In this document: in pieces, positions 1 to 18,252 of the stretch
How the letters are laid out: every line of letters begins with the position of its first letter
Position numbering within the stretch: position 1 is the first letter of the stretch
NCBI GenBank assembly: GCA_040437565.1
Contig: JBDOQK010000019.1
Location: 496,001-522,487, forward strand
Source of the DNA: Albugo candida
Lineage: Eukaryota
Reading direction: 5' to 3'
DNA: 26,487 nt
Position numbers and translations under genes: made by a program
The notes under the pieces: model-generated
Told to the model about the DNA's origin: nothing
What the model saw: the letters and a program-made list of their open reading frames with translations, nothing else
The model's database searches: none

Positions 1-1366
1 ATTGTTATTAAACCACAATTGAAATAATCTTTTTTGCCTCCGGTTGGGTAGATTTTGAGCTACGCAACCTTATATCCTCAAAGACCCTACGAATATCTTG
101 CATATACCGAAAAATCGCATTTATCCTTTGTGTGTGCGCTGGGTATTTTTTGCGTTACCTGCTACATTCACGTTCCTCAACAGCTTATTTTCTTTTGTAT
201 TCCCTCATTAACATTCAGAATCAAACTAATTGGACTCCACTGCTTCATCTTACTCCAGCTAACTATGTTGCTGATTTTGATATTTCTTCGTAAACCATTT
301 ACCAGTGCTGTTCGACTTTAAATGCCATTCCACAACCAAGCACGTGACATGAATGCTCTTAAATTTCATATGTGCTATCAAAAGTTTGAAAATNNNNNNN
401 NNNNNNNNNNNNNNNNNNNNNNNNNNNNNNNNNNNNNNNNNNNNNNNNNNNNNNNNNNNNNNNNNNNNNNNNNNNNNNNNNNNNNNNNNNNNNGAGCACT
501 GCATAAGTCGAAGCTTTGGTCCGATAAGCACAATTAAGGCATTCGATATCGTTTGTAGCAGTTCGCTAAATGCTTGAATATCGTTGTCGTTGATAGGGAT
601 TCGAACAAAAATCTCACACAATCCTTTGACACTAATTTGATTATTCATTTCCTTCTCCGTTATAACTTTAATTCGCCATACTTCACAGTTTCTTTCACCG
701 GACTGCTCTTGTCTCTTTTTCGATAATTGTTGGAAATCTTGATTTCCAAACCGTAAAATTTCTTCGGCATCAATCAACGCACGGCATTGAGCTGTTTCTC
801 TTCGGGTACTTACGTATATGGGGTACCCCACACGGTGATTCAAACGGTGATAATTGATTTCAAGTAAATCTGATACTCCAGTCTTGGTTTATTTAGTGAA
901 AGCCATGTTTCCAGTAATGCGTATGCCGCTGCTTCTTCAATTGCCATCCGTCTCAGCACGGATCATTTGATAGATTGTTATTAAACCACAATTGAAATAA
1001 TCTTTTTTGCCTCCGGTTGGGTAGATTTTGAGCTACGCAACCTTATATCCTCAAAGACCCTACGAATATCTTGCATATACCGAAAAATCGCATTTATCCT
1101 TTGTGTGTGCGCTGGGTATTTTTTGCGTTACCTGCTACATTCACGTTCCTCAACAGCTTATTTTCTTTTGTATTCCCTCATTAACATTCAGAATCAAACT
1201 AATTGGACTCCACTGCTTCATCTTACTCCAGCTAACTATGTTGCTGATTTTGATATTTCTTCGTAAACCATTTACCAGTGCTGTTCGACTTTAAATGCCA
1301 TTCCACAACCAAGCACGTGACATGAATGCTCTTAAATTTCATATGTGCTATCAAAAGTTTGAAAAT
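1..1366. repeat. Direct duplication 1-393 = 974-1366 around N-gap 394-493 (probable unmerged contig overlap)
   Basis: Sequences match at offset 973 (identical ORFs 55..321 and 1028..1294). The first copy ends exactly at the 100-N gap. Confidence 0.9.
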
Positions 1367-1396
1367 AAACAGATTTTACACACATCGTTTGCAATC

Positions 1397-4300
1397 ACTT
1401 ATCCCTTCTTCTATACTTCTCTCCAAATACCGTATTGAAGAAAACGCAATATACTTTTTCATTGTATTTAACTCCACGCCATGATCGTTGCATTTTCGCC
1501 AATGATATATCTTTCGCCATATACGGGAGCATCATTCAGCCACAAGATCAGCCCTTCAACATGTAGCGGTTCGATCATACGTTTAGCCACCTGCTGAGTG
1601 GAAGCCATTGCGTTTGTGATCTCCGGATTGCCCTGCTTACAATACAAAGACCATTGATCCCATATAAAAAAAATCTCTACGACAATCATCCGGTCATCCA
1701 AGTGTACTTGATCATAAAGCATGAGTAAGTCGAATGGATAATAACATATTTCATTCCAGGTGAGTAAGGACGACCTCCAAGTGCTGCAAATTTACAGTAG
1801 AATCCGCGAAATAAGCCTGGTCTTTAATGCAAAGTTCGATTCGGCTACCGCGCCTGCTTGTCGAGCGTTTCGTAATTTCTGACAAGTAAATCTAATTTTT
1901 TTTTCTCTTCAGCTGTCCATTCGTTTCTTTTAGCGTGATTAATACATAACCCTTCTCATCGCTACTGAGATCACCAATGTCGCCAGGAAGTTTACTTTTA
2001 CAATCTTGGGGAATTCCACACTTGTGATCATTTTGTAGGGCATTATCTTAGGCAATTCTGTACATTTGTTTCTCCCTTGTTCCAAGTAAAACTGCCAACG
2101 TGACGTCCTAACCTTATTCGTCAAGAGCCGATCGATAACCACGGTTTTTATTTTCGGTGGCATTTTGAGATCATCACCGAAGGGTCCCCGTCATACAATT
2201 CTCCTAGGTCTAGCGATACTATACAGCACTCAGAACCAGAAAGTCATATTTACTGACAATTTCGGATTGTTGCTTTTGCTCATCACTTCCAAGTACGGCC
2301 ATTTTTTGGCTGTAGTGTTTGATTTCGTTTTCACTTACCTCTAAGGTAACTTGATGACAGTATTGCTACTTCGGAAAGCACATCGATCAACTTTGAAGAG
2401 AATTCTCGTACTGCCGCTCTCAAAATTTCTTAACGTTATCTGGTACTCGAAACAAACTTGTAGCGTTATCTTTTTCAGAAGTAATTCGGTCGGCGGGCTG
2501 CATTTTATCGACCACTTAAGGGTTGATAGTCTCCAGCGCATCTCACCACAAATTCCTTACAAGACTCTAAAGCGTCGATAGTTCACTTGGCAGTACTTGT
2601 TACTACGGCGTATTCCACATATTGATGCAAGCCATGCTGATCCGAAACTTCTGCACAATCTAGTTTCTCGGTGGAGTTGGACTTGATCAAGCGTCCATTA
2701 AAATTATGCTTAGCCTGGATTTTGGGTATTCGAATAAGAATTAAAAAAATATGTGGCCGGCCTCTTCGGCTTCCCTATAACACTTGAATCAATATCTCCC
2801 CATCACCCCCAACGGTTTTTTTTGCTATTCGATTTGCATGATTTGTTGCTTGATTAACGCGTTTTCATGGAATTCTTATAAGCCAAGACTATGTTTTACT
2901 TTTATTTTTACACTCCGAGCAAATTTTTTTGAGCAAGCTGTGGTGCATTTGTAATCCGGATATCACCCGAATAGTCGGTCATTTCGGTCTCTCCGCGACT
3001 ATTTCTTCTCTTAGAGTACCAACGAGATCTTTAATAGATCTAGTTCTATCACCGTGGCCTTTATCGAGATGTGTGATTATCCTACTGTCTGCTTCAAATT
3101 GAATCAAGACAATAGTGCGTTTTGTATCGTCAAAATGTGTTGTGGTTTCTTCGAAAAGAACAAAATCGTAAACCCTGTATAGTAACAAAGCGTTAGGCGA
3201 CTGGAAACGCCTCTTCGTTGGTTCTGAAATTAGAGAAGTATAAGACCTAAAATAAAATAATTATTGATGTCTTGTTCAATCTTCTATATTATCTTCCGGA
3301 AGTTTTGATGTTTGCACCTCACTTCGCTGTTCAAGCATGTGAAATTCGTGCTCCAAAAAATATCAACGAAGCTTAGCAGGATGATGGATTAATCAGATGT
3401 TGCAAATGTAGGCAAGGCTTTAGTATAATCAACCCAAATGATGCAGACAAGATGGTAACCCATACCTAAGCAATTAGATCGGAGTAAGTGTAACGAAATC
3501 CTTCACGTTCTGTACTCTCGCCTCATGTTTATCATGATACCATCAAGTACACTATTTCAGCGCAAGTGGATAGAAATGAACGAAGTGGCCAGGGGATAGA
3601 GTTCAACACTTTCGAAGATAGACACTACGATGATTAGCGTGTGCCAATGACAAGACTCTTATGCCGTAAACAAGTGCTAGCCCCAACAATCGAAATCAGA
3701 TGCACCTAAACGTTTCGACGGAATCTCAATGCATAAAGCAGGAAGATTATGAAAGTGAAGCCTACCACGATCATTAGAAAGCGATCCGTGACTAGATGGG
3801 CTGATTTTTGACAACGTTAGAGTGATCTCGCAAACCTCTATCACAGACTTAATTAATGGTGTCGAAGATAAGGTGAGCACTCNNNNNNNNNNNNNNNNNN
3901 NNNNNNNNNNNNNNNNNNNNNNNNNNNNNNNNNNNNNNNNNNNNNNNNNNNNNNNNNNNNNNNNNNNNNNNNNNNNNNNNNNACTTATCCCTTCTTCTAT
4001 ACTTCTCTCCAAATACCGTATTGAAGAAAACGCAATATACTTTTTCATGGGATTTAACTCCACGCCATGATCGTTGCATTTTCGCCAATGATATATCTTT
4101 CGCCATATACGGGAGCATCATTCAGCCACAAGATCAGCCCTTCAACATGTAGCGGTTCGATCATACGTTTAGCCACCTGCTGAGTGGAAGCCATTGCGTT
4201 TGTGATCTCCGGATTGCCCTGCTTACAATACAAAGACCATTGATCCCATATAAAAAAAATCTCTACGACAATCATCCGGTCATCCAAGTGTACTTGATCA

Positions 4301-6468
4301 TAAAGCATGAGTAAGTCGAATGGATAATAACATATTTCATTCCAGGTGAGTAAGGACGACCTCCAAGTGCTGCAAATTTACAGTAGAATCCGCGAAATAA
4401 GCCTGGTCTTTAATGCAAAGTTCGATTCGGCTACCGCGCCTGCTTGTCGAGCGTTTCGTAATTTCTGACAAGTAAATCTAATTTTTTTTTCTCTTCAGCT
4501 GTCCATTCGTTTCTTTTAGCGTGATTAATACATAACCCTTCTCATCGCTACTGAGATCACCAATGTCGCCAGGAAGTTTACTTTTACAATCTTGGGGAAT
4601 TCCACACTTGTGATCATTTTGTAGGGCATTATCTTAGGCAATTCTGTACATTTGTTTCTCCCTTGTTCCAAGTAAAACTGCCAACGTGACGTCCTAACCT
4701 TATTCGTCAAGAGCCGATCGATAACCACGGTTTTTATTTTCGGTGGCATTTTGAGATCATCACCGAAGGGTCCCCGTCATACAATTCTCCTAGGTCTAGC
4801 GATACTATACAGCACTCAGAACCAGAAAGTCATATTTACTGACAATTTCGGATTGTTGCTTTTGCTCATCACTTCCAAGTACGGCCATTTTTTGGCTGTA
4901 GTGTTTGATTTCGTTTTCACTTACCTCTAAGGTAACTTGATGACAGTATTGCTACTTCGGAAAGCACATCGATCAACTTTGAAGAGAATTCTCGTACTGC
5001 CGCTCTCAAAATTTCTTAACGTTATCTGGTACTCGAAACAAACTTGTAGCGTTATCTTTTTCAGAAGTAATTCGGTCGGCGGGCTGCATTTTATCGACCA
5101 CTTAAGGGTTGATAGTCTCCAGCGCATCTCACCACAAATTCCTTACAAGACTCTAAAGCGTCGATAGTTCACTTGGCAGTACTTGTTACTACGGCGTATT
5201 CCACATATTGATGCAAGCCATGCTGATCCGAAACTTCTGCACAATCTAGTTTCTCGGTGGAGTTGGACTTGATCAAGCGTCCATTAAAATTATGCTTAGC
5301 CTGGATTTTGGGTATTCGAATAAGAATTAAAAAAATATGTGGCCGGCCTCTTCGGCTTCCCTATAACACTTGAATCAATATCTCCCCATCACCCCCAACG
5401 GTTTTTTTTGCTATTCGATTTGCATGATTTGTTGCTTGATTAACGCGTTTTCATGGAATTCTTATAAGCCAAGACTATGTTTTACTTTTATTTTTACACT
5501 CCGAGCAAATTTTTTTGAGCAAGCTGTGGTGCATTTGTAATCCGGATATCACCCGAATAGTCGGTCATTTCGGTCTCTCCGCGACTATTTCTTCTCTTAG
5601 AGTACCAACGAGATCTTTAATAGATCTAGTTCTATCACCGTGGCCTTTATCGAGATGTGTGATTATCCTACTGTCTGCTTCAAATTGAATCAAGACAATA
5701 GTGCGTTTTGTATCGTCAAAATGTGTTGTGGTTTCTTCGAAAAGAACAAAATCGTAAACCCTGTATAGTAACAAAGCGTTAGGCGACTGGAAACGCCTCT
5801 TCGTTGGTTCTGAAATTAGAGAAGTATAAGACCTAAAATAAAATAATTATTGATGTCTTGTTCAATCTTCTATATTATCTTCCGGAAGTTTTGATGTTTG
5901 CACCTCACTTCGCTGTTCAAGCATGTGAAATTCGTGCTCCAAAAAATATCAACGAAGCTTAGCAGGATGATGGATTAATCAGATGTTGCAAATGTAGGCA
6001 AGGCTTTAGTATAATCAACCCAAATGATGCAGACAAGATGGTAACCCATACCTAAGCAATTAGATCGGAGTAAGTGTAACGAAATCCTTCACGTTCTGTA
6101 CTCTCGCCTCATGTTTATCATGATACCATCAAGTACACTATTTCAGCGCAAGTGGATAGAAATGAACGAAGTGGCCAGGGGATAGAGTTCAACACTTTCG
6201 AAGATAGACACTACGATGATTAGCGTGTGCCAATGACAAGACTCTTATGCCGTAAACAAGTGCTAGCCCCAACAATCGAAATCAGATGCACCTAAACGTT
6301 TCGACGGAATCTCAATGCATAAAGCAGGAAGATTATGAAAGTGAAGCCTACCACGATCATTAGAAAGCGATCCGTGACTAGATGGGCTGATTTTTGACAA
6401 CGTTAGAGTGATCTCGCAAACCTCTATCACAGACTTAATTAATGGTGTCGAAGATAAGGTGAGCACTC
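1397..6468. repeat. 2486-bp direct duplication 1397-3882 = 3983-6468 separated only by a 100-N gap (probable assembly overlap or haplotig)
   Basis: Offset 2586, with all short ORFs duplicated identically. The only differences I noticed are T1463/G4049 and T1465/G4051, near the contig end. Both copies abut gap 3883-3982. Confidence 0.92.
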
Positions 6469-8152: not shown

Positions 8153-9264
8153 CTAACCGTCCAATGATGACGCTCCTGAAATAATCTCAATCAGCTCCGT
8201 AGTGATTCGAGTTTGCCGGGCTTTATTATAAGATAATGTCAGCGAAGATATCAGATCTTGCGCGTTCGTTGTTGCATTTTCCATAGCAGCCATTCGCGAG
8301 CTCTCTTCACTGGTGGAGTTTTCAATGACCCCGTGATAAATTGCACTTGCCAGCTCAAACTCCTTCAAATCTGCCAAAATGTCCTCCTTTGTGTCCGGCT
8401 CAAGTTCGTACTGGTCGAGTTTGTCCGTATCCAAGCGAACGGATAGAGAACGAATCGAAGGTTGATACAGTACAGCCGAAACGAATTTGTTGAACAAAAC
8501 ATGAATCCGTTCCGTGTCTGCAACAGCTGATGATAAAATAGCTTGAGCAAGAGCGCTTGCGATACTGAAATTGAATGGATGTTGATAGGTCTCGGTGACA
8601 TTGCCACGAATTCGGTCTGCAAACTCACGACGCAGTAGTGCTCGCGCTTTTTCTCCGATAATGAAGAGGCTTGTATTATGTCCATCATTGGGTGCCAATG
8701 CTAATTGGCGGCGGGTTTGCTTTGCAATTCCCGAATTAATCCCTCCGCAAAGTCCTCGATCAGATGATATGACGACAATTGCATGACCATCCTTTCCGCC
8801 CTCTTCCAATTCTTCCTTCGGTACATGTCCGTCGACGTCAATAACGCGCACCTTCGAGTCGATACGGTCCAGCCATCCCTAAAGAGTTGTGTACACACAT
8901 TAACTACATATTTCTATATATATGACCCCAATTTTGCTAATTACCGCAAAAGGTCGACCATTCAGTAAACGTGTCTCTGCGCCACGCATTTTTGCCGCGG
9001 AAACCATTTTCATGGACTTCGTGATCTTCGATATGTTTTTCGTGGACCCAATCCGCATCAAAACTGGAGGGGAAGTCAGTGATGTGTTTATTGCATTGAA
9101 AGCCAGGTAAATGAAACGTACTTTGCTTCTCAGTCGCCATCCCGCGAACTTGATAGCTGAAGTATCTGCATACATCAAAAGTGAAAGCGTTTATTAGCAT
9201 CCTCTTACACCATTTTGTGCTAAGGAACGAACTTTGTTACAGGGACACCGCTGCGATTAAACAT
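8153..9264 (-). CDS. ATP3: Mitochondrial F1 ATP synthase gamma subunit, 4 exons, 306 aa
   Basis: Manual splicing: complement(join(8153..8878,8945..9063,9122..9165,9233..9264)) = 921 nt. Introns are 9232-9166 (GTTCGT..TGCAG, 67 nt), 9121-9064 (GTACGT..CCAG, 58 nt) and 8944-8879 (GTAATT..TTAG, 66 nt). Protein: [50 protein letters not shown]...SSDRGLCGGIN...SEESSRMAAMENATTNA...YNKARQTRITTELIEIISGASSLDG. These are hallmark gamma-subunit motifs, preceded by a presequence-like N-terminus. Confidence 0.97.
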
Positions 9265-10172
9265 TTTTCAAGAATTGAGCTTTGGACTGATACTGTTCAC
9301 CGGGAATACCAGTATTACCGTTATTTATACCGGGAAGAATTCAATGCCAAGTAGACCGACTGTTGAAGTTCTATTATTTCAAAATAGCAGATGCTTGATT
9401 GAAATAAAATGAACGCTAGGAAACTGTCAGGACTTCTTGGCAATGCTAAGCGATATATTGGGGAAGGGACATGCAGACAGTATCGCTTTGCAAATCTTGC
9501 ACTTTGAACACTAGCATCAGCATCTCAGATTTTATATAGTCGGGAACGATCAGCTGTAATAACGGAAGCATATACACGACGACTTGTCAAGGCAGAGCCC
9601 ATAGAATATGGATGACGTATACAGTTAAGTTATAAATATCGAGCAAGATACACCCAAACTGGTCATTTCTGCTAGCAATGGGGTAATACCCACAAACGGC
9701 CTCGCGAATTAATGAAGCCACGTGACGTAGATATGACTGGATCACATCATGGAAGCAGTATGCATATCATTTCGGTTCAGCTCTAGCTCAAATTGACTAA
9801 GTCACACTCACTGCGCCACGATGACAGATTATGATTATGCGCATATCAAGCAATTTAATTGGATGTCGTTGACTTTATCTACCATAACAGCAAGCAGCGG
9901 CAATATCCGACATCAACTTGAGTAACCATTACCAAATGCTGTAGCACAACCACGTTACATTATCGTAGGCAAGATACATAAATTCGACATTTCGCTCAAT
10001 GCTTTTTGTACGAGATTTTGTTTGTGACCTAGTGATCTATACTGCTCATCGCCATGCACCTTATTTTCATGATCAGAATCTACGTGCGATCTCTTTTAAA
10101 CAGATTTTTTGATCAATATGTTGCGATCTCATGGCAGAGTCGACACTTTGATACAGCTGTAAATGATTGATA

Positions 10173-10316
10173 TATAGCCACATCCCTAACTTAACTGAGA
10201 ACACCGGCATCGTCACCCCCCCCCCTAATTATCCTTAATAAACGGGAACCAGTATCAAAACACCCCCTAAATTAGAATTAAATTAGGGAACCGTTATCGC
10301 CACACCCCCTAAATTG
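10173..10316. repeat. Left terminal inverted repeat of outer MULE (~140 bp, built of subrepeats)
   Basis: TATAGCCACATCCCTAACTTAACTGAGAACACCGG...GGGAACCGTTATCGCCACACCCCCTAAATT is the inverse of the split right end. Confidence 0.88.
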
Positions 10317-10318
10317 AA

Positions 10319-11473
10319 TTACAGATTTGTTTTGTTAATTTTGAGTTGTGGACATGTGCGCCTGTTGTGATCTTCTTGTTTGCAGGCCCCGCATCTTCGT
10401 TTTGGCACTTCCTTCCCCTCCCTCTCAATGTACTCGAATGCGGACAGATATCGTTTGGCCCAAGTGCCCAAATGTAATCATCTTCTCATTCGTGTCGCAA
10501 GAAAACATAGCAAAGGGAATATGACTGGTTTTTGCATGCCACACCCATGACATGGAGCAATGGCATTTGAAACCTGGAGATTGTCTGCTCTTAGTTGATG
10601 TTGGGCAAAAATTGATTGCTAAGCATTTTACTCACCTATTGTTTTTTTTATTGATTTTTGNNNNNNNNNNNNNNNNNNNNNNNNNNNNNNNNNNNNNNNN
10701 NNNNNNNNNNNNNNNNNNNNNNNNNNNNNNNNNNNNNNNNNNNNNNNNNNNNNNNNNNNNTGTTTTTTTTATTGATTTTTGTATGTCGAATCTGCTAGAA
10801 GAACCCCCCCCCCTCCGAAGAAAAATCATTGTCTGTCGAGATGCAAGGCTTAGGTGCAATTAGAAGGCGCGTTAATTGACCCGATGAGGGGTCTCGATCA
10901 AGCTTATGCCTAATGGCATTTTACTCTAGTGTATCCAGCAATTCTTTGAGCGGGCTACGACCAAGGAGAAATTCCGCTCGTTCACGTTTCTTAACATTGT
11001 AAATGTCTTGTCCGGTGGCAAGAAAAGCAGATCAGACCGCTTCATCGTACTCAAAATTAGCCGAGGAGGTGCTCTACCTTTTGTGAAGTCCAGAATTTGC
11101 TGCCTCTCCACCTGGTTCAATACTTTGGCTTCTAGGAATGCTACAAGATTCTCTGCTGCCTCATGATTGTGAGTTGCAACGACCACACTCACTCGCCATT
11201 CTTGCACAGAATTTGATTCATTTGGCGCTGAATGGTTATTAACCATGGGCAGATTAGAAGCCGCGTTGATGTTTGGCGGATCCTCGTGCCCTTGTTGTTG
11301 TACCGACCACCATGAACGCAAGAAAGCCACACCTTCCTAGTAATTCCGTACTTGTCGGCCTTTGTGCGGGCTTTCTTTCTGGAATAGCCTTCTTGCCACG
11401 CAAAGGTTTTTATTGCCTCTTCTGCAATTTCATAGGTCTCATAGGTGTGATCCGGCGGTGGCGCAAGTGGCAT
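10319..11473 (-). pseudogene. MULE (Mutator-like) DDE transposase pseudogene with one intron and a large internal deletion
   Basis: ATG at 11473. FAR1/WRKY-like Zn domain (LSCVHGG..TSTRLLICPW..WRVSVVVATHNH), then QDIYNVKKRERAEFLLGRSPLKELL, then first catalytic Asp VLLADSTYK (~10790). After intron 10635-10574: NRFQMPLLHVMGVACKNQSYSLCYVFLRHE*EDDYIWALG, jumping directly at ~10460 to KRYLSAFEY and the C-terminal knuckle CGACKQEDHNRRTC (10393-10352). TAA at 10321-10319. Several frameshifts and stops. Confidence 0.9.
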
Positions 11474-11539
11474 AGTGAGCACAGTGTATTCACGTTAGCG
11501 TACGTATAGCAATGTATGCAGGTGTATAGCGAGTTGGAT

Positions 11540-11650
11540 AATTAGGGTGTGTGGCTATACCGGATTCCTCAATTAGGGTGTGTGGCGATATCGGTTCCCT
11601 AATTTAATTTTAATTTATCGAGTGTGGTGATACCGGTTTCCATTTATTTA
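11540..11650. repeat. Inner part of the right TIR of the outer MULE (tandem subrepeats TTAGGGTGTGTGGC.ATA.CGG.TCC)
   Basis: 11569-11650 is the inverse of ~10235-10316. An extra subrepeat copy lies at 11540-11570. Confidence 0.85.
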
Positions 11651-11754
11651 GGGTATTGATATCCCGACAACTTTTTTTTGATTACATTTTTATTTTGAGA
11701 GCCGCTATGGCCACAGACAAAACTACTACGGCCACAGACAATTGATCTAACCAG

Positions 11755-11770
11755 TCACTTCTCAATTTGC
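11755..11770 (+). promoter_or_regulatory. Oomycete INR+FPR core promoter upstream of LINE ORF1
   Basis: TCACTTCTCAATTTGC is a perfect match to YCAYTYY-NN-MWTTTNC and lies ~80 bp before ATG 11849. Confidence 0.7.
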
Positions 11771-11848
11771 TGGATACTAAGTAACCCGCTAATTTAGTAA
11801 AAACACCTCGAAAAAACAACTTTTTTCAACTCTTTCCTCTCGATAACA

Positions 11849-13756
11849 ATGGTTCAAGTCGACATATCGACACAACCCAGGGTGCTAGCGTCCACTTGTA
11901 GTGACGTGGCAACCCTCATGGGTCACCCAGCTTTGGGTGATTGCATGATTGTTGATGAGTCATCACCCCTGTGTGATGACGTGGAGAGTACCCCCACCCC
12001 CAGTGTAACGGTACAGGTTAAAACCGGTACTACCGGTGTCGGATGTGGTACCGGTGGTACGTGCGGTACTGTCATTGCCTCGTCACAGGATGACCCAAAG
12101 GCAACTGCAAGTGTAGACGACACTAAAAGTCCCACTCTTGCTGACATTATCAAGTCACAGGAGTCCTTACGTAAGGACCAGGCTAGAGCTCGGGCGAAAT
12201 TTTGCGTGGAGCTCCAAAAGCCGAAAGCCTCGGATATCGAGGCTATACTGCAGCTAAATCCTGATGGGGAGCACCCGGATTGGTCAGTTTTTTTCTGCGA
12301 AATTAGAAGCAGCAAGACCTTTCCAAATCCGGAAAGCAACCTTCCCAATGGTCGTGGAGACGGGCCAGTCCTTGAACCGTACTCCAAATGGGAAAAATTT
12401 GACCTCCCTAATGCGAGACGACGGCAATCCGGTATTCGAAAGCCTACTGGAGAGCCGTTCCATCGCTCAGGTGTCCAAAATGCCTGGTGGAAACATCAGG
12501 GTGATGGTCACCACGGCGGATGCCTGCCAGCACTGGGAGTGTCAGCTGGTGACTATCCTTGGGGAACAGTATTTCTTCCGGGAGTTTGATACTCTGGAAG
12601 CAAAATACTACCTCGATGTCTTCGGTGGCGGCGTGGAGGAAGACCGGACCAACATTCTGCGCTCTCTTCACAAACTCGGGTGTCAGGTGGTGTACGACAC
12701 CTTTCGCGAGACGGTCCCCACTAAAGAAGTGGTGTTGTCAACTTGGAGAATTTATTTTGGCTCTTAGACATGCCCCAGCAGCTGGTTAGAGTTGATAAAG
12801 TGATTGAACAAATCGCTTACGACAAACAACTTTACCCATTAAGCGGAAAAATGCTCCCATTCTATCAGAACGACCACGTTGACCGAAACGTGGTCCTTAT
12901 TGCTGGGATTTGGGTGCTACATCAGCCACGGGAGCAGGGCAACACAAAAGGAAAACAATAATAAAAAAAAGCCAAAATCAATCTGCAACTCAGAATCACA
13001 ACAACTAAAAACAAAAAAGCAACAAAAANNNNNNNNNNNNNNNNNNNNNNNNNNNNNNNNNNNNNNNNNNNNNNNNNNNNNNNNNNNNNNNNNNNNNNNN
13101 NNNNNNNNNNNNNNNNNNNNNNNNNNNNGGACCAAATCATCCGGGCAGCATTAGATCATCCCATCACCATGCATGGGGTGCTTATTTCATGCATGGAGTC
13201 GAATGATCCTGCGTTGGACGAAGTAGCACATCTACTTCTCATCAATCGCGTTTTTGTAGCGCACAATCTCGGCGAAGATGTCACATTTACGACGCGATGG
13301 AGTCGCCACGTTGGTGGGAAAGCTCCCTCCAAGAGATCTGTCTTGTTCGAGAAAGTCATGTCGTGGTGGACGTCAGTGCCGGACATAGTTCTCAGGTTGA
13401 CTCGAGCAACCAAAGCACTCGCGTTTTTGGAACTCTTCTTGATGTGTACTGCTCCGACATTCTACAAAAACGATCACTGGATCCAATATCTCACCGATAG
13501 ACCAGTGATTTGGATTCCGGGTCATCATTGTCGTTTACTTCCAGCTAATTTGATCATACTGTTCTTACGCTCCGACGTGGGCATCAAGTGTTGGTCTCAA
13601 TGGTTTGGTGGTAAATGGCGAGGAATTCTCTGTGGTGACATCTCTGAGCTTTCAGTCCATCTTAGCTTTTTCACAGAAGAGAAAGCAACACTCCAACTCT
13701 CAAAAGAAGATGATGAAATGAGGTTGATTGGTGGTCCACTTCAGCGTGAATGGTAA
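11849..13756 (+). pseudogene. LINE ORF1 protein (frameshifted, spans gap 13029-13128)
   Basis: Consecutive overlapping ORF pieces 11849-12589, 12264-12767, 12743-12961 and 13169-13756 (...STWRIYFG...; DQIIRAALDHPITMHG...GGPLQREW*) sit immediately upstream of the APE-encoding ORF2. The assignment is mainly positional. Confidence 0.7.
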
Positions 13757-14059
13757 GGGCTCCTCGATTATTTTAACGTGGAACAGTATCTCAGCACTCA
13801 CGGTGAATGTGAATGGAATTCATAAAAGTGGTCATCTTTTTATTGAGCACATCCTATCACAACACTCCATTTGTTGTGTTCAAGAGACCAAGTTTCACGA
13901 TCACAACCAACTGGACTCCATTCAGTTTTTATTAACATCAAAAATGCAGCACAAAATGTTTGTCAATGATCGCAACAGTGCTTTTCTCCATCCGACTCAA
14001 AACCGCAGTGGCGGCGTCATGAGAATCCTTCGTTCGGACTTTCCCGGTTATACTGAACG

Positions 14060-14279
14060 GATTGGTGAACACATGCAATTGCTCCAATTTTTCATTCACC
14101 TTTTCCAATGATTCCATTTCATGAACGAGAGATGGCGGTGGTTGTACGTTCTCCTGAGCTACATCTTCGACTGTATTGGTGGGATAGGTCTCGCCGTCCA
14201 GGCTTGGCGCTAGTAAAACACCACTATCTGAAGCTTTGATGAATTTGTCTTCACAATGCTCGAAAAACTCCAGACGCAA
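14060..14279 (-). other. 220-bp foreign segment inserted in the APE domain, open on the minus strand
   Basis: APE homology stops after SDFPGY and resumes at SIRNRYLVLRL. GAACG occurs at both junctions (14055-14059, 14280-14284). The minus strand reads LEFFEHCEDKFIKASDSG...EKLEQLHVFTN without stops. Confidence 0.55.
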
Positions 14280-15417
14280 GAACGAAGCATTCGAAATCGC
14301 TATTTGGTTTTGCGTCTTATCATTAACGATGCACCGGTGTATATCCACATTTCTCTCCAACACTTTCGAATCGACCGCAACACATATGGTATTTATTCTG
14401 TGATTTCAACACACCACTCGATCCAGCTATCGATGCCTCGAGTGGAACAATTCGACACGAACCAAGTCGATTAGCGTGTTTGGAAAGGCTTTTACAGTTG
14501 GGTGTGGCAGACGCTTGGCGAATTCAATATCCGACTGAAAAAGTATTTTCAGGACCATTACCGCGCAAGAATCAGCTTGATTACATCTGCATGTCGGAAG
14601 AGCTATTCAATATGGTATGCAAAACCTCTGAGTATTTTCGTCCACGACATGCGGGAGATCATCTGGCACAGAAAGTAACTTTTACAAGTCCAACTCAATC
14701 TCCGGGACGAGGATATTGGAAATGTTCATTACGACTATTTGAATATCCTAAAGTTGTCGAAGCAATCAACTTGGAAGCGAATTTGGTGCTCGAACAGTTG
14801 CGGACAACTTCGAATACCGGCAAAATGTGGGGCAGTTGGAAAACGAAAATCAAGAAACAGCTTCAAAGCATTGAAAAAAAGATTGCACAAGATAGCCGAC
14901 GTGATGTTGAGTCTAGCCAGCGTGTTTTGGAAGTCGCAGCAGCTCGATATCGCATTCCCGATACCAAAGAGTCACGGTATTTTTACGAATCGAGTCTCGA
15001 GCATTTCAGAATTTCGATCGAAAACAATGCGAAATACAACCAAGATGAAAGCTTCGACCATCACATGAGGCATATGGAGAACTATTCCAAGCATATTTCG
15101 CCCTCCGGATAGTTCTTATCGTCGTGTGCCGATCGGAAATGTCATCAAAAAATATGGCACAGTGACAGCAAACCCGAGGGAGATTATTGACGAATTCAGA
15201 GATCATTGGGGTGGTGTCATGGGCTCTGTTTATAGCTCCGAGACCGACTCCGACTCAAATGCTCCATGTTAAAGAAAGCAAAAAAAGTTACTCGATTCGA
15301 TCCAAGTTTCCCTTTCCTCAGCAGAGCAAGACCGTCTCTTAACTCGCTTAAGTACGACCTAGATGGCGGAAGCGATAAAGCACATGCGGAGTAGTTCTTC
15401 TCCAGGTATGGATGGAC

Positions 15418-15673
15418 TGTTGAAGAAGGGTGTATTGTTTTCAAGTTACGCTATCGCACGATGCATGCTGGTAACGGCAAAGGATTACCGACGCGCTGGC
15501 CAGTTGATTCTAATGCGCGACTATACGATTAGTAATGCGCGGTGTAGAAAACTGTCAAGGTATAGTCGAAGAAAGCAGTAGGCTTAGAGTAGCAAGAGCG
15601 TCTGCGAACTAAGGACCTGAATATATATCAGTATTTGATTTGCTACCTGCTGAGCACAACGCATCTTTTAACA
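15418..15673. mobile_element. Solo LTR (256 bp, Copia-like termini) inserted in the LINE RT
   Basis: Starts TGTTGAAGA and ends TCTTTTAACA (TG...CA, short imperfect inverted termini). Perfect 5-bp TSD TGGAC at 15413-15417 and 15674-15678. Removing it restores ATG GAT GGA CTA CCA GCT GCA TTT TAT (MDGLPAAFY). Confidence 0.9.
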
Positions 15674-15907
15674 TGGACTACCAGCTGCATTTTATAAGAT
15701 CGATCCAGAAACGTTTGGCGAGTGTCTGAAGATCGTGTTCGAATATCAGCTGGAAAGAGGTATCTTACATCGATCACAACGTCACTCGGCAATGACCTTA
15801 TTGTACAAAAAAGGATCACGAGGTGATCCTGGCAACTGTTGACCGATCGCACTGCTTTGCGTCGATGTGGAAGTACTTTGAAAAGTGTTGGCGTATCGAT
15901 TGCAACG

Positions 15908-15983
15908 TTTTTTGCCAAAATTGATCCATCAAGATCAAAAAGCATTTTTTTGCCAAAATCGATCCATTAAGATCAAAAAGCAT
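15908..15983 (+). repeat. 38-bp tandem duplication frameshifting the LINE RT
   Basis: TTTTTTGCCAAAATTGATCCATCAAGATCAAAAAGCAT followed by TTTTTTGCCAAAATCGATCCATTAAGATCAAAAAGCAT (two C/T differences). Confidence 0.9.
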
Positions 15984-16721
15984 TTGTGCGAGGAAGGTCA
16001 ATGCATCATCATATTCGACATCTCACCGACATCCAAGACTTGGTCACTCATCGTGGGGAGGAAGCTTATGAAACGTTTTTTCGACTTTGAGAAAGCTTAT
16101 GATCGAGTCAATTGGACGTACATGTTTCGCGATCTGGAAAAAATGGGCGTTGGAAAAAGTTTTATCGACTGGGTTCGACTTTTGTACAATAACACAAAGG
16201 CGCAGTTGATGATTAATGGAAACATCACACCGTCCATTACACCACAACGTGGAGTGAAAAAAGGTGATCATCTCTCAGCATTACTTTTTCTGATGACGAT
16301 CGAACCTTTGGGAAATTTACTTCGACAACATGAAGAACATGGCATTTGGATTAATGGCACGACNNNNNNNNNNNNNNNNNNNNNNNNNNNNNNNNNNNNN
16401 NNNNNNNNNNNNNNNNNNNNNNNNNNNNNNNNNNNNNNNNNNNNNNNNNNNNNNNNNNNNNNNAAATGCTATGTGTCAAATGGAAATTGTCAGAAGTAAT
16501 AGCCTATCACAGATGGAACGTTCCATGTATTAGCCAATCACAAATAATTCTCGATTGGAGCTGCTGGAGCAACATTTTAGGGTGTGTATGGATGTAGTTA
16601 GCTAGAAATGTAAAAAAATCATGTATGTATTTTGCAAAACAAAAGTTGCGAGAGTAGTAATTCAACTAGGCATGTTGTAATTCAAAAAAAAGTTGTCGGG
16701 ATGTCAATACCCATTCATTTA

Positions 16722-16813
16722 GGATATTTAGGGGGTGTAACGATACCGGTGTTCTCAGTTAAGTTAACGGTGTGGCTATTGCTAAAGTGGGGTGTGGCTA
16801 TACTGGATTCCTC
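16722..16813. repeat. Outer part of the right TIR of the outer MULE, ending GGCTATACTGGATTCCTC
   Basis: GGATATTTAGGGGGTGTAACGATACCGGTGTTCTCAGTTAAGTTA...GTGGCTAT is the inverse of ~10174-10234. The terminal subrepeat matches 11551-11570. Confidence 0.82.
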
Positions 16814-17342
16814 GAAAAATTGTCGATATAGGGATGGCTACACATGGGAATAAAGCCATCATCATACATCTGGTGATGATGGGAACAAACCAAATGCAAG
16901 CAAAGAAAAGGGTCTAATTAGGTATTTTGTTTTTTATTGGTTTCTACCAGACCTATACTGCTGTATACAATAAAAACTGGCTTTCATAAAGTACATGAAG
17001 AATCAGAGAATTAGCTGACGGATGTTACAGGCGCAATAAATTACTTCGTGCGTGCTCGTATAAACACAGATGATAACCCTGTACGCAAGAGAACAAGCTT
17101 CATTTTCACCTATCAATCAACTCAATTCAGCAACCTCCATAATTAGAAGTAAGGAAGCTTTTCTCCACGTACATGATCTTTTCCCTTTCTAAGAGAACGG
17201 CGTGAAGCACTCTTCACAACTTCAGTGGTGGTAACAAACAGCTGGTTAGGATCACCTGGGCCGATTAGTTAAGTGTTTACAGAATTCTCTCTCAAATGTA
17301 GCGCGTCAAACTGTCGCGTGATGGATAGGGCAGTCGTTTATC

Positions 17343-17358
17343 TCACTTAATATTTTTC
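17343..17358 (+). promoter_or_regulatory. Oomycete INR+FPR core promoter of the trypsin-like gene
   Basis: TCACTTAATATTTTTC has one mismatch to YCAYTYY-NN-MWTTTNC and ends ~20 bp before ATG 17380. Confidence 0.55.
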
Positions 17359-17379
17359 CCTTTTCGGCTGAAGGGTATA

Positions 17380-18252
17380 ATGTTCACACGTCTATCAATC
17401 ATCGGCTATCTTCTCATCGGTAAAATCATTGACGTTTCTGGCTTCGTCAAGAATAGAAAATGTAGTGCTCCGAAATCAATCCGACGAACCTTTCCACCGG
17501 TTGGATCAATTATGCTACAGGTCGGTGCGGGGAAAAGACAACCTTTGTGTGCGGCGGCTCTTATCGACAAGAAACATGTGGTATCCAATGTTAACTGCCA
17601 TACTTCAATAATCGATATTGCACAGAAATCAAAAGTGCATGTGTATTTTTATATCAATTCTACGTCCTACATCTTGACAAGTGGAAGAAGCGTTGGTATT
17701 CCAGAAGGAGCTGCGAATGACAAATATGACGAGAATACTCAGCAGGGCGACTTTGTTATTTTTGAACTAGCGTATACCCTACACATACTACCAGCGCTAC
17801 TCTCTAATAGTCCACCAAAGCCTAACACAGAGTTTTTCGTAGTTGGTAGTGGGGCAACCGTGTCTGCCGATTTGGATAAACATTCAAGATATGTAACGGA
17901 TTGGGAGATCGGCACTTTGACCGTTCAAGATACAAGCACATGTGCAAGCTCATACCAATACAATCCTTATGATGGTGTACACCCTTTGTACAATAGAACG
18001 CACCTTATCTGCGCGTTATCAGAATGTATTTCTCCGTGTGACCGTGAAAATGGTATGCCGCTGTTGGATGTGATAAAAGTAAATTCTCAAGATCGTGTTG
18101 TGATTTTTGGCATTCTATCGTTCAAAGCGAACAAGTGCACCATTGGCTCAGCTGCGACTTTTGGGATTCCTTCCGCATACAAATCTTTTTTCACGGAAAC
18201 TGCACCGGGGAATATTTTTGTAGATGTTTGTCATGAGACCGGAAAGTGTTGA
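17380..18252 (+). CDS. Secreted trypsin/chymotrypsin-fold (S1) pseudo-protease, glucanase inhibitor protein (GIP)-like candidate effector, 290 aa
   Basis: Intact single ORF with a hydrophobic N-terminus (signal-peptide-like, ~21 aa). S1 motifs: LCAAALIDKKHVVSNVNC (cf. CGG.LI...VLTAAHC; His->Asn), GDFVIFEL (Asp kept), VVGSG (cf. GWG), ICA, CDRENGMPL (cf. CQGDSGGPL; Ser->Asn), VIFGILSF..C (cf. GIVSWG..C). Confidence 0.85.
   Translation: MFTRLSIIGYLLIGKIIDVSGFVKNRKCSAPKSIRRTFPPVGSIMLQVGAGKRQPLCAAALIDKKHVVSNVNCHTSIIDIAQKSKVHVYFYINSTSYILTSGRSVGIPEGAANDKYDENTQQGDFVIFELAYTLHILPALLSNSPPKPNTEFFVVGSGATVSADLDKHSRYVTDWEIGTLTVQDTSTCASSYQYNPYDGVHPLYNRTHLICALSECISPCDRENGMPLLDVIKVNSQDRVVIFGILSFKANKCTIGSAATFGIPSAYKSFFTETAPGNIFVDVCHETGKC

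Follow-up and report, generated by a model that had tools for sequence, protein, structure and literature searches.

Does a long interspersed nuclear element (LINE) lying between the terminal inverted repeats (TIRs) of a DNA transposon travel as its cargo, or did it seek out the transposon as a target? This question is raised by a stretch of 26,487 nucleotides from Albugo candida (assembly GCA_040437565.1, contig JBDOQK010000019.1, positions 496,001 to 522,487), referred to here as the window. An initial annotation of 11642-16721, made from the sequence alone, had proposed either a composite mobile element or a LINE that targets a fixed site in a non-autonomous Mutator-type element, with a single chance insertion as the null. 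Our results suggest, with a probability that we put at roughly 80%, that the locus is a nest of four separate insertions, plus two small ones, in which a motif-guided LINE with minor hot spots took part, and not one composite element. This reading is built on the observed anatomy of the locus, the families involved, the target motif, the target site duplications (TSDs), insertion counts and tests of independence. The genome searched was the 36.6-Mb draft assembly, and L-numbers denote other loci in the same genome. The window also holds features beyond those of the initial annotation, namely two 100-N assembly gaps, a second transposon (element B) and an outer element (element C).

Nested transposons at the locus

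The TIRs described for this unit are present: inverted arms at 11651-11681 and 16682-16712 pair over 31 nt at 97% and are extendable to about 36 nt at 86-95%. They bound an element that we call A. The 9-bp TSD ascribed to it is present as well; direct repeats ATTTATTTA (11642-11650) and ATTCATTTA (16713-16721) flank the arms and agree at 8 of 9 positions, the right copy carrying one mismatch. For A, 9 bp is a minority length. The assembled interior between A's TIRs contains LINE remnants and, as had been noted, no transposase. The LINE was thought to begin directly beside A's TIR, between GATTACA and TTTTT; its actual start is at 11757. The sequence before it comprises the left end of A, with its TIR and a subterminal T-rich tract (11651-11696, + strand), and the outer 60 bp of one TIR of B (11697-11756, + strand), with the remaining B in a gap.

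Element A lies within element C, which appears to be Mutator-like and extends over 10173-16779. The left TIR of C occupies 10173-10320 (+ strand), other copies beginning at 10172-10173, and inverted arms pair 10174-10222 with 16731-16779 and 10230-10312 with 11573-11655. The portion of its right TIR before the A insertion, built of 31-bp subrepeats, covers 11525-11641 (+ strand) and is continuous in L233 with the remainder at 16722-16779 (+ strand). As this uninterrupted C copy aligns continuously across the A insertion site, the two ends of A are shown to derive from a single insertion, the gaps notwithstanding. In other runs, contigs match both A junctions without differences (X2 over 11495-11672, X16 over 16652-17400), and neither a gap-bridging contig nor an empty allele is among the joints listed from four public runs. 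A broken coding remnant of C (10926-11494, - strand) is linked by tblastn to copies L032 and L040, in which matches to the Mutator-like element (MULE) domain are located further along; the remnant itself gave no significant match in the Pfam search.

The description of a non-autonomous Mutator-type element proved correct for A. A 2.7-kb copy with both A ends (L219) has MULE transposase remnants, to which MULE-domain peptides match at E 3e-9 to 4e-9, and short copies retain the last ~30 codons of the transposase; A is therefore a Mutator derivative. PF10551 is found on an open reading frame (ORF) adjoining an A end in L221. Paired A copies are mostly 0.6-1.1 kb long and without the LINE, 11651-11696 matches positions 1-44 of an empty copy at 89%, and the TIR is represented by 54 exact 19-mers in the genome. 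Among 14 paired copies, the TSD is an exact 8 bp in nine, 9 bp in two (one of them the window) and mismatched or ambiguous in three. An 8-bp TSD and GG ends are features of Merlin elements. Merlin identity for A was rejected, since the two PF12762 loci, the Merlin/IS1595-type transposase ORFs of L217 (C580) and L218 (C434), both lie on short contigs without A or B TIRs.

Element B is a second MULE family. The 11697-11756 query gave at least 43 matches and the TIR core occurs at 67 sites genome-wide, with long copies L213 and L208 carrying PF10551 (E 4e-12 and 4e-11). Its 9-bp TSD is exact in 8 of 15 pairs and has one mismatch in 5 of 15 (two false L001 rows excluded). Both A and B resemble non-autonomous MULE derivatives, or MITEs (miniature inverted-repeat transposable elements), in their G-started TIRs, their A+T-rich TSDs of 8-9 bp and their internal-deletion series from PF10551-bearing long copies. 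A differs from other MULE derivatives in its mostly 8-bp TSDs, with otherwise nothing unusual. These families enter each other's A+T-rich ends repeatedly and at differing positions: A is found in C TIRs at the window, L044 and L233, and B inside A at the window, L002 and L049. A forms the flank of 5 of 55 B ends, at different sites in three loci, and C that of 4 of 92 A ends.

Structure and relatives of the LINE

The LINE (11757-16363, + strand) has a full-length 5' end and is a dead copy. A 5' untranslated region precedes ORF1, which runs from an ATG at 11849 to ~13756 and contains the first assembly gap (100 N at 13029-13128, size uncertain). ORF2, from ~13740, encodes an apurinic/apyrimidinic-type (APE) endonuclease and the first half of a reverse transcriptase (RT), corresponds to residues 13-728 of the 1398-aa relative P0002, and is broken by stops, frameshifts and two inserts. 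The RT matches PF00078 at E 3e-9, and the endonuclease matches PF03372 at E 0.018, below the cut-off; full-length relatives have both families and no RNase H family.

One insert is a ~230-bp foreign segment (14051-14280) in place of ~22 bp of ORF2. It is absent from most family reads, is skipped by joints of run X21, and has a close copy elsewhere in a long contig in runs X16 and X18. The other is a ~254-bp small repeat (15419-15672) with a 7-bp flanking repeat, absent from other LINE copies and from family reads, with a second copy at L076:1572-1778; one of its ends resembles the reversed LINE terminus, and it is possibly a partner like a short interspersed nuclear element (SINE) or a small TIR element. 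The second assembly gap (100 N at 16364-16463) probably stands for more than 2 kb, comprising the LINE 3' part, the rest of B and A positions ~47-545. Public-run reads continue from 16363 into RT sequence, the distance from RT to 3' end is 1.2 kb in LINE copy L310, and after the gap A resumes at position 546 of 786 with its right 249 bp, including the TIR (16464-16712, + strand).

The family is abundant. The position equivalent to 11757 is where all 31 aligned 5' ends start; the 5' ends in the genome number 148 if one mismatch is allowed and 98 if none is, the exact 3' ends at least 155, and read depth over the LINE interior reaches ~100-200 times that of unique flanks. The 3' ends stop at ...CACCTTCAACT, with the TSD directly next and no poly(A), and this end is linked to the RT of the window LINE in L308 and L310. 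In 30 two-ended copies the TSDs are 11-17 bp with a mode of 14, a variable length as expected of the L1 group. Members of the L1 clade typically have a 3' poly(A) tail, and the L1 endonuclease motif is TTTT/AA.

Judged by its predicted proteins, the LINE is of the L1 group in structure, with an ORF1 and an ORF2 that has an N-terminal APE endonuclease and an RT. Variable-length TSDs of ~14 bp and a short endonuclease motif are further features in common with that group, but the LINE lacks poly(A) and its motif contains G+C rather than being TTTT/AA. The ORF1-then-ORF2 order and the APE endonuclease with RT are shared with human L1 and with the oomycete L1 described in the relevant portions of PMC5348765. 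Relatives of our LINE lack RNase H, unlike the aRNH-bearing oomycete L1s in that account, which, in the portions considered, gives none for Albugo. A homologue search with the window endonuclease-linker ORF returned one match, an Albugo laibachii protein (51%). Sister-family RT homologues rank oomycete APE+RT proteins first (related elements are in Globisporangium, Peronospora and Phytophthora), then plant and dictyostelid sequences. This similarity ranking lends no support to Tx1 membership, and PDB matches to R2 and human L1 score alike.

Insertion sites across the genome

Insertion targets were read from both LINE ends. The 3' sample consisted of the first 100 of 155 ends in contig order which, minus two assembly duplicates and one end running into N, left 97. 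The 5' sample was taken from 94 of the 98 exact ends, giving 91 distinct flanks, of which 90 entered the TGA count (L004 merged with L002). The bases after the 3' end were G in 89 of the 97, A in 82, then G, A or T in 51, 25 and 19, C in 55 and T in 50; the T preceding these bases was fixed by the search pattern. T is also the first base of the upstream TSD copy in 29 of the 30 copies with both ends. The preferred top-strand target motif is Y-T-G-A-(G/A/T)-C-T. From the other side, TGA is found 11-18 nt upstream of the 5' end in 63 of 90 flanks, as against 9-13 in control windows.

The targets themselves are diverse. Among the 97 3' ends, 14 lie in tRNA-SINEs (9 clear by pattern, 4 A-box-like, with L169 confirmed by its SINE body, and L109 confirmed likewise), 3 in A at two sites and 1 in B; the remaining 79 (80 before L109 was assigned) matched none of the compared repeats. 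One of A's three may be A's own LINE-like interior. The 91 5' ends include 5 in tRNA genes (Asn, Arg, Thr, Ile, Ala), 8 in SINE or SINE-like heads (6 by BLAST, 2 by eye), 4 in B and 2 in A. Sites of tRNA type thus account for 13 of 91 5' ends and ~14% overall, and A and B together for 4 of 97 3' ends and 6 of 91 5' ends. The LINE is not MITE-specific, and the idea that it targets a fixed site in A finds no support in these counts. A family has been regarded as target-specific if more than 20% of flanks lie in one repeat, according to the sections of PMC4494074 consulted; no target class here reaches that figure.

Several observations concern sites of tRNA type. LINEs lie head-to-head with intact tRNA genes at L025, L107, L165, L288, L297 and L305 (Asn, Arg, Arg, Thr, Ile and Ala), with no more than 1-2 bases between the LINE 5' end and the tRNA 5' end, and three of these sites are off-consensus. 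The target motif is the reverse complement of the A-box region of tRNA. At L107, L165 and L288 the motif is poor, yet the insertion position in the gene is the same, which favours a determinant beyond the hexamer. SINE hits exceed the prediction of a motif model ~27-47-fold if 152-182 copies are assumed, and still 5-7-fold with 1000; this model was trained on the 80 unassigned targets, with the genome treated as uniform and copy numbers taken from the assembly. The LINE 3' end joined to the consensus target recreates the motif, which fits the head-to-tail stacks at L135, L167, L287 and L302. Such stacks, with one TSD-length spacer between, are seen at L135, L165, L167, L287 and L302.

Inside A, the LINE 3' terminus recurs as a near-copy of ~33 bp with the preferred target after it (e.g., L002:170-210, L220:5333-5368, L231:1887-1919). 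This stretch is possibly an old truncated LINE insertion that spread with A. At L032, a longer LINE 3' end occurs at the same A-interior site.

Repeated insertion into the TIR of element B

In the window and at L002, L003 and L004, the LINE lies at the same base of B's TIR, accounting for 4 of the 98 exact 5' ends and 4 of ~65 B sites; two matching 3' junctions were found genome-wide. The 5' copy of the 14-bp TSD in the window is TGATCTAACCAGTC (11743-11756). Both copies are present at the equivalent junctions of L002 (each ...CAATC) and L003 (each ...CAACC), the window 5' copy ending in ...CAGTC. The window pair can only be inferred because its LINE 3' junction falls in the unbridged gap. The LINEs of L002 and L003 sit in opposite B ends, and TIR subrepeat numbers differ among the four loci. 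Nor do the four LINE 5' ends form a clade: they require 4 changes on a 47-row tree, were joined in 0 of 200 bootstrap trees, and a single clade was rejected by the approximately unbiased (AU) test (p=0.00035; 46 rows, long-branch L165 omitted). Because of the locus-specific TSD pairs, opposite B ends, differing subrepeat numbers and scattered LINE ends, the four insertions look independent of one another. A single chance insertion, the null, is therefore also wrong in detail, as the B-TIR site has been used repeatedly. For the overlooked B, the fixed-site proposal survives in a weak form, with four independent same-base hits, but these are only ~4% of full-length copies.

The motif model predicts 0.011 hits on B's TIR in 97 ends, and three were observed without the window (Poisson P 2e-7); the motif likelihood ratio of the site is ~135. 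B's TIR contains a small hot spot that looks real. Two further candidates were discarded. L068, considered as another same-site LINE, proved to be the interior of a long B copy, and an inverted second motif in the B TIR predicts, by inspection, a 22-bp stagger as opposed to the 14-16-bp TSD.

Several points weigh against the hot spot and the nested reading. The hot spot consists of four events at a site picked after the window had been seen. Its null treats the genome as uniform and takes copy numbers from the assembly, though read depth shows that the LINE interior is heavily collapsed, and confining insertions to 1/20 of the genome would abolish the significance of B. A longer motif (-4..-1, +6) adds nothing to the B excess (extra likelihood ratio 0.94), the CAAC match at the extended motif has P 0.05-0.10, and 8-nt 5' microhomology is not significant overall (P 0.09), so that neither accounts for the excess; in the microhomology analysis, the positions that stand out after the TSD are +1 (A) and +4/+6 (T) alone. 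The tree covers only ~185 nt, with strong support on 1 of 43 inner branches. The LINE 3' end of L004 was not found within 9.5 kb, and the window LINE 3' junction and the rest of B lie in a gap bridged by none of the contigs listed from the four runs.

Neighbouring sequence

Outside the nest, positions 1-6000 contain long near-identical direct repeats at spacings of 973 and 2586, probably assembly duplications beside gaps. An ATP synthase gamma subunit ORF (8153-8878, - strand, PF00231), an ordinary host gene, lies 1.3 kb from the nest. At 17329-18252 (+ strand) is an intact trypsin-family ORF (PF00089, E 2e-8), whose catalytic His motif looks altered and which is similar to non-catalytic oomycete protease homologues.

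Discussion

The order of events suggested by the nesting is C, A, B and then the LINE. The Mutator-like C would have inserted first, followed by cut-and-paste insertion of the MULE derivative A into C's A+T-rich right TIR with a 9-bp TSD, and by entry of B, likewise a MULE derivative, into the subterminal T-rich tract of A. A full-length L1-group LINE would then have entered B's TIR, by target-primed reverse transcription if it follows L1-group biology. Its APE endonuclease would nick at the short motif Y-T-G-A-(G/A/T)-C-T; the LINE RNA, ending ...CAACU without poly(A), would have its terminal base in common with the first TSD base and at most short pairing to the target, and a second nick would fall 11-17 nt further on (mode 14). 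Most insertions occur at dispersed motif matches, but multi-copy sites with the motif are used more often than the motif predicts, namely tRNA genes and tRNA-SINEs in their A-box region (~14%) and the single site in B's TIR (~4% of full-length copies). This excess may arise from accessible or protein-bound DNA at RNA polymerase III (Pol III) units and MULE TIRs, together with survival in harmless places.

A composite element, in which the TIRs of A or B carried the LINE and the shared B-LINE junctions stem from one insertion spread by transposition, gap repair or gene conversion, would account for a junction common to four loci to the base. B is a genuine MULE family, including long members that bear a transposase, and the near-copy of the LINE 3' terminus in A may be old LINE cargo. 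However, of the 40 matches scored out of 279 candidates, none but the window spans the 11651-11850 query in full, so that these matches hold no second A-B-LINE locus; many paired A copies lack the LINE; and the variants in both TSD copies, the opposite B ends and the rejection of one clade all speak against a single spreading insertion. We consider this explanation largely refuted and very improbable. A Tx1L-like element, sequence-specific for a Mutator MITE, is more improbable still. It would explain the same-base hits at 4 of ~65 B-TIR sites, and Tx1L in Tx1D and Tx1-Mar in Mariner-N4 provide precedents in the sections of PMC4494074 consulted. However, B receives 1 of 97 and 4 of 91 ends, and even with A added the share is far under the 20% of that source; the nearest non-oomycete homologues are plant and dictyostelid sequences. 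This explanation is refuted family-wide and could persist only for an unrecognised young subfamily, of which the tree gives no sign.

Finally, the four hits may be due to chance, the short motif, purifying selection and repeat clustering producing them without a true hot spot. The B site does carry the motif, transposon nesting is heavy here, and the events are few and the site chosen post hoc. However, with 370 insertions confined to 1/4 or 1/10 of the genome, P(>=3) is 7e-4 or 9e-3, rising to 0.05 only at 1/20, and the tRNA genes were hit at one position even where the motif is poor. Chance is thus unlikely, if less so than the other two alternatives, and we favour a nest entered by a motif-guided LINE.

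A more speculative extension, to which we give rather less than even credence, is that this LINE lineage is part-way to target specificity. Its endonuclease would read the reverse-complement A-box, its own 3' end would rebuild the target, and an extra determinant (a bound factor or DNA shape) would steer it towards tRNA genes, tRNA-SINEs and B's Mutator TIR, which has a stretch resembling the A-box at 9 of 11 bases. Targeting of multi-copy 'safe sites' would then have arisen independently in APE elements that belong to neither Tx1 nor R1. TRE5-A of Dictyostelium is a non-LTR element biased to tRNA genes in a compact genome. Both elements show a tRNA-gene bias; in ours, LINE and tRNA meet 5' end to 5' end, the A-box region receives the first nick, and tRNA genes take only 5 of 91 full-length ends. 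A literature search that covered few subscription journals and not Repbase Reports found no account of target preference in an Albugo or other oomycete APE-type LINE. Utopia elements, known as sequence-specific in oomycetes, differ in endonuclease and target, as far as the portions of PMC4640811 considered describe them.

Closer parallels are found in Tx1, which the same sections of PMC4494074 describe as an animal clade and in which Tx1L inserts in Tx1D (Xenopus), and Tx1-Mar and Tx1-9_AMi in crocodilian Mariner and Harbinger DNA transposons. On this partial account, our LINE and B resemble Tx1L/Tx1D and Tx1-Mar in that an APE-type LINE is found repeatedly at one site of a non-autonomous DNA transposon through independent insertions, not co-mobilisation. 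They differ in that only 1-4% of insertions fall on the DNA-transposon site, a MULE serves as host and most targets are dispersed motif matches. By this analogy, the LINE would behave as a weak version of these systems, below the specificity criterion.

In summary, this locus represents ordinary transposon nesting, and its annotation as a composite element is unwarranted. The gain is at the level of the family and is modest: for an oomycete LINE present in many copies, the motif, the TSD lengths and the spread of targets have been measured, and a Mutator TIR is added as a second, non-Pol-III hot spot. Should the excess beyond the motif be confirmed, this LINE would provide a tractable case of a weak preference on the way toward strict targeting of the Tx1/R1 type.

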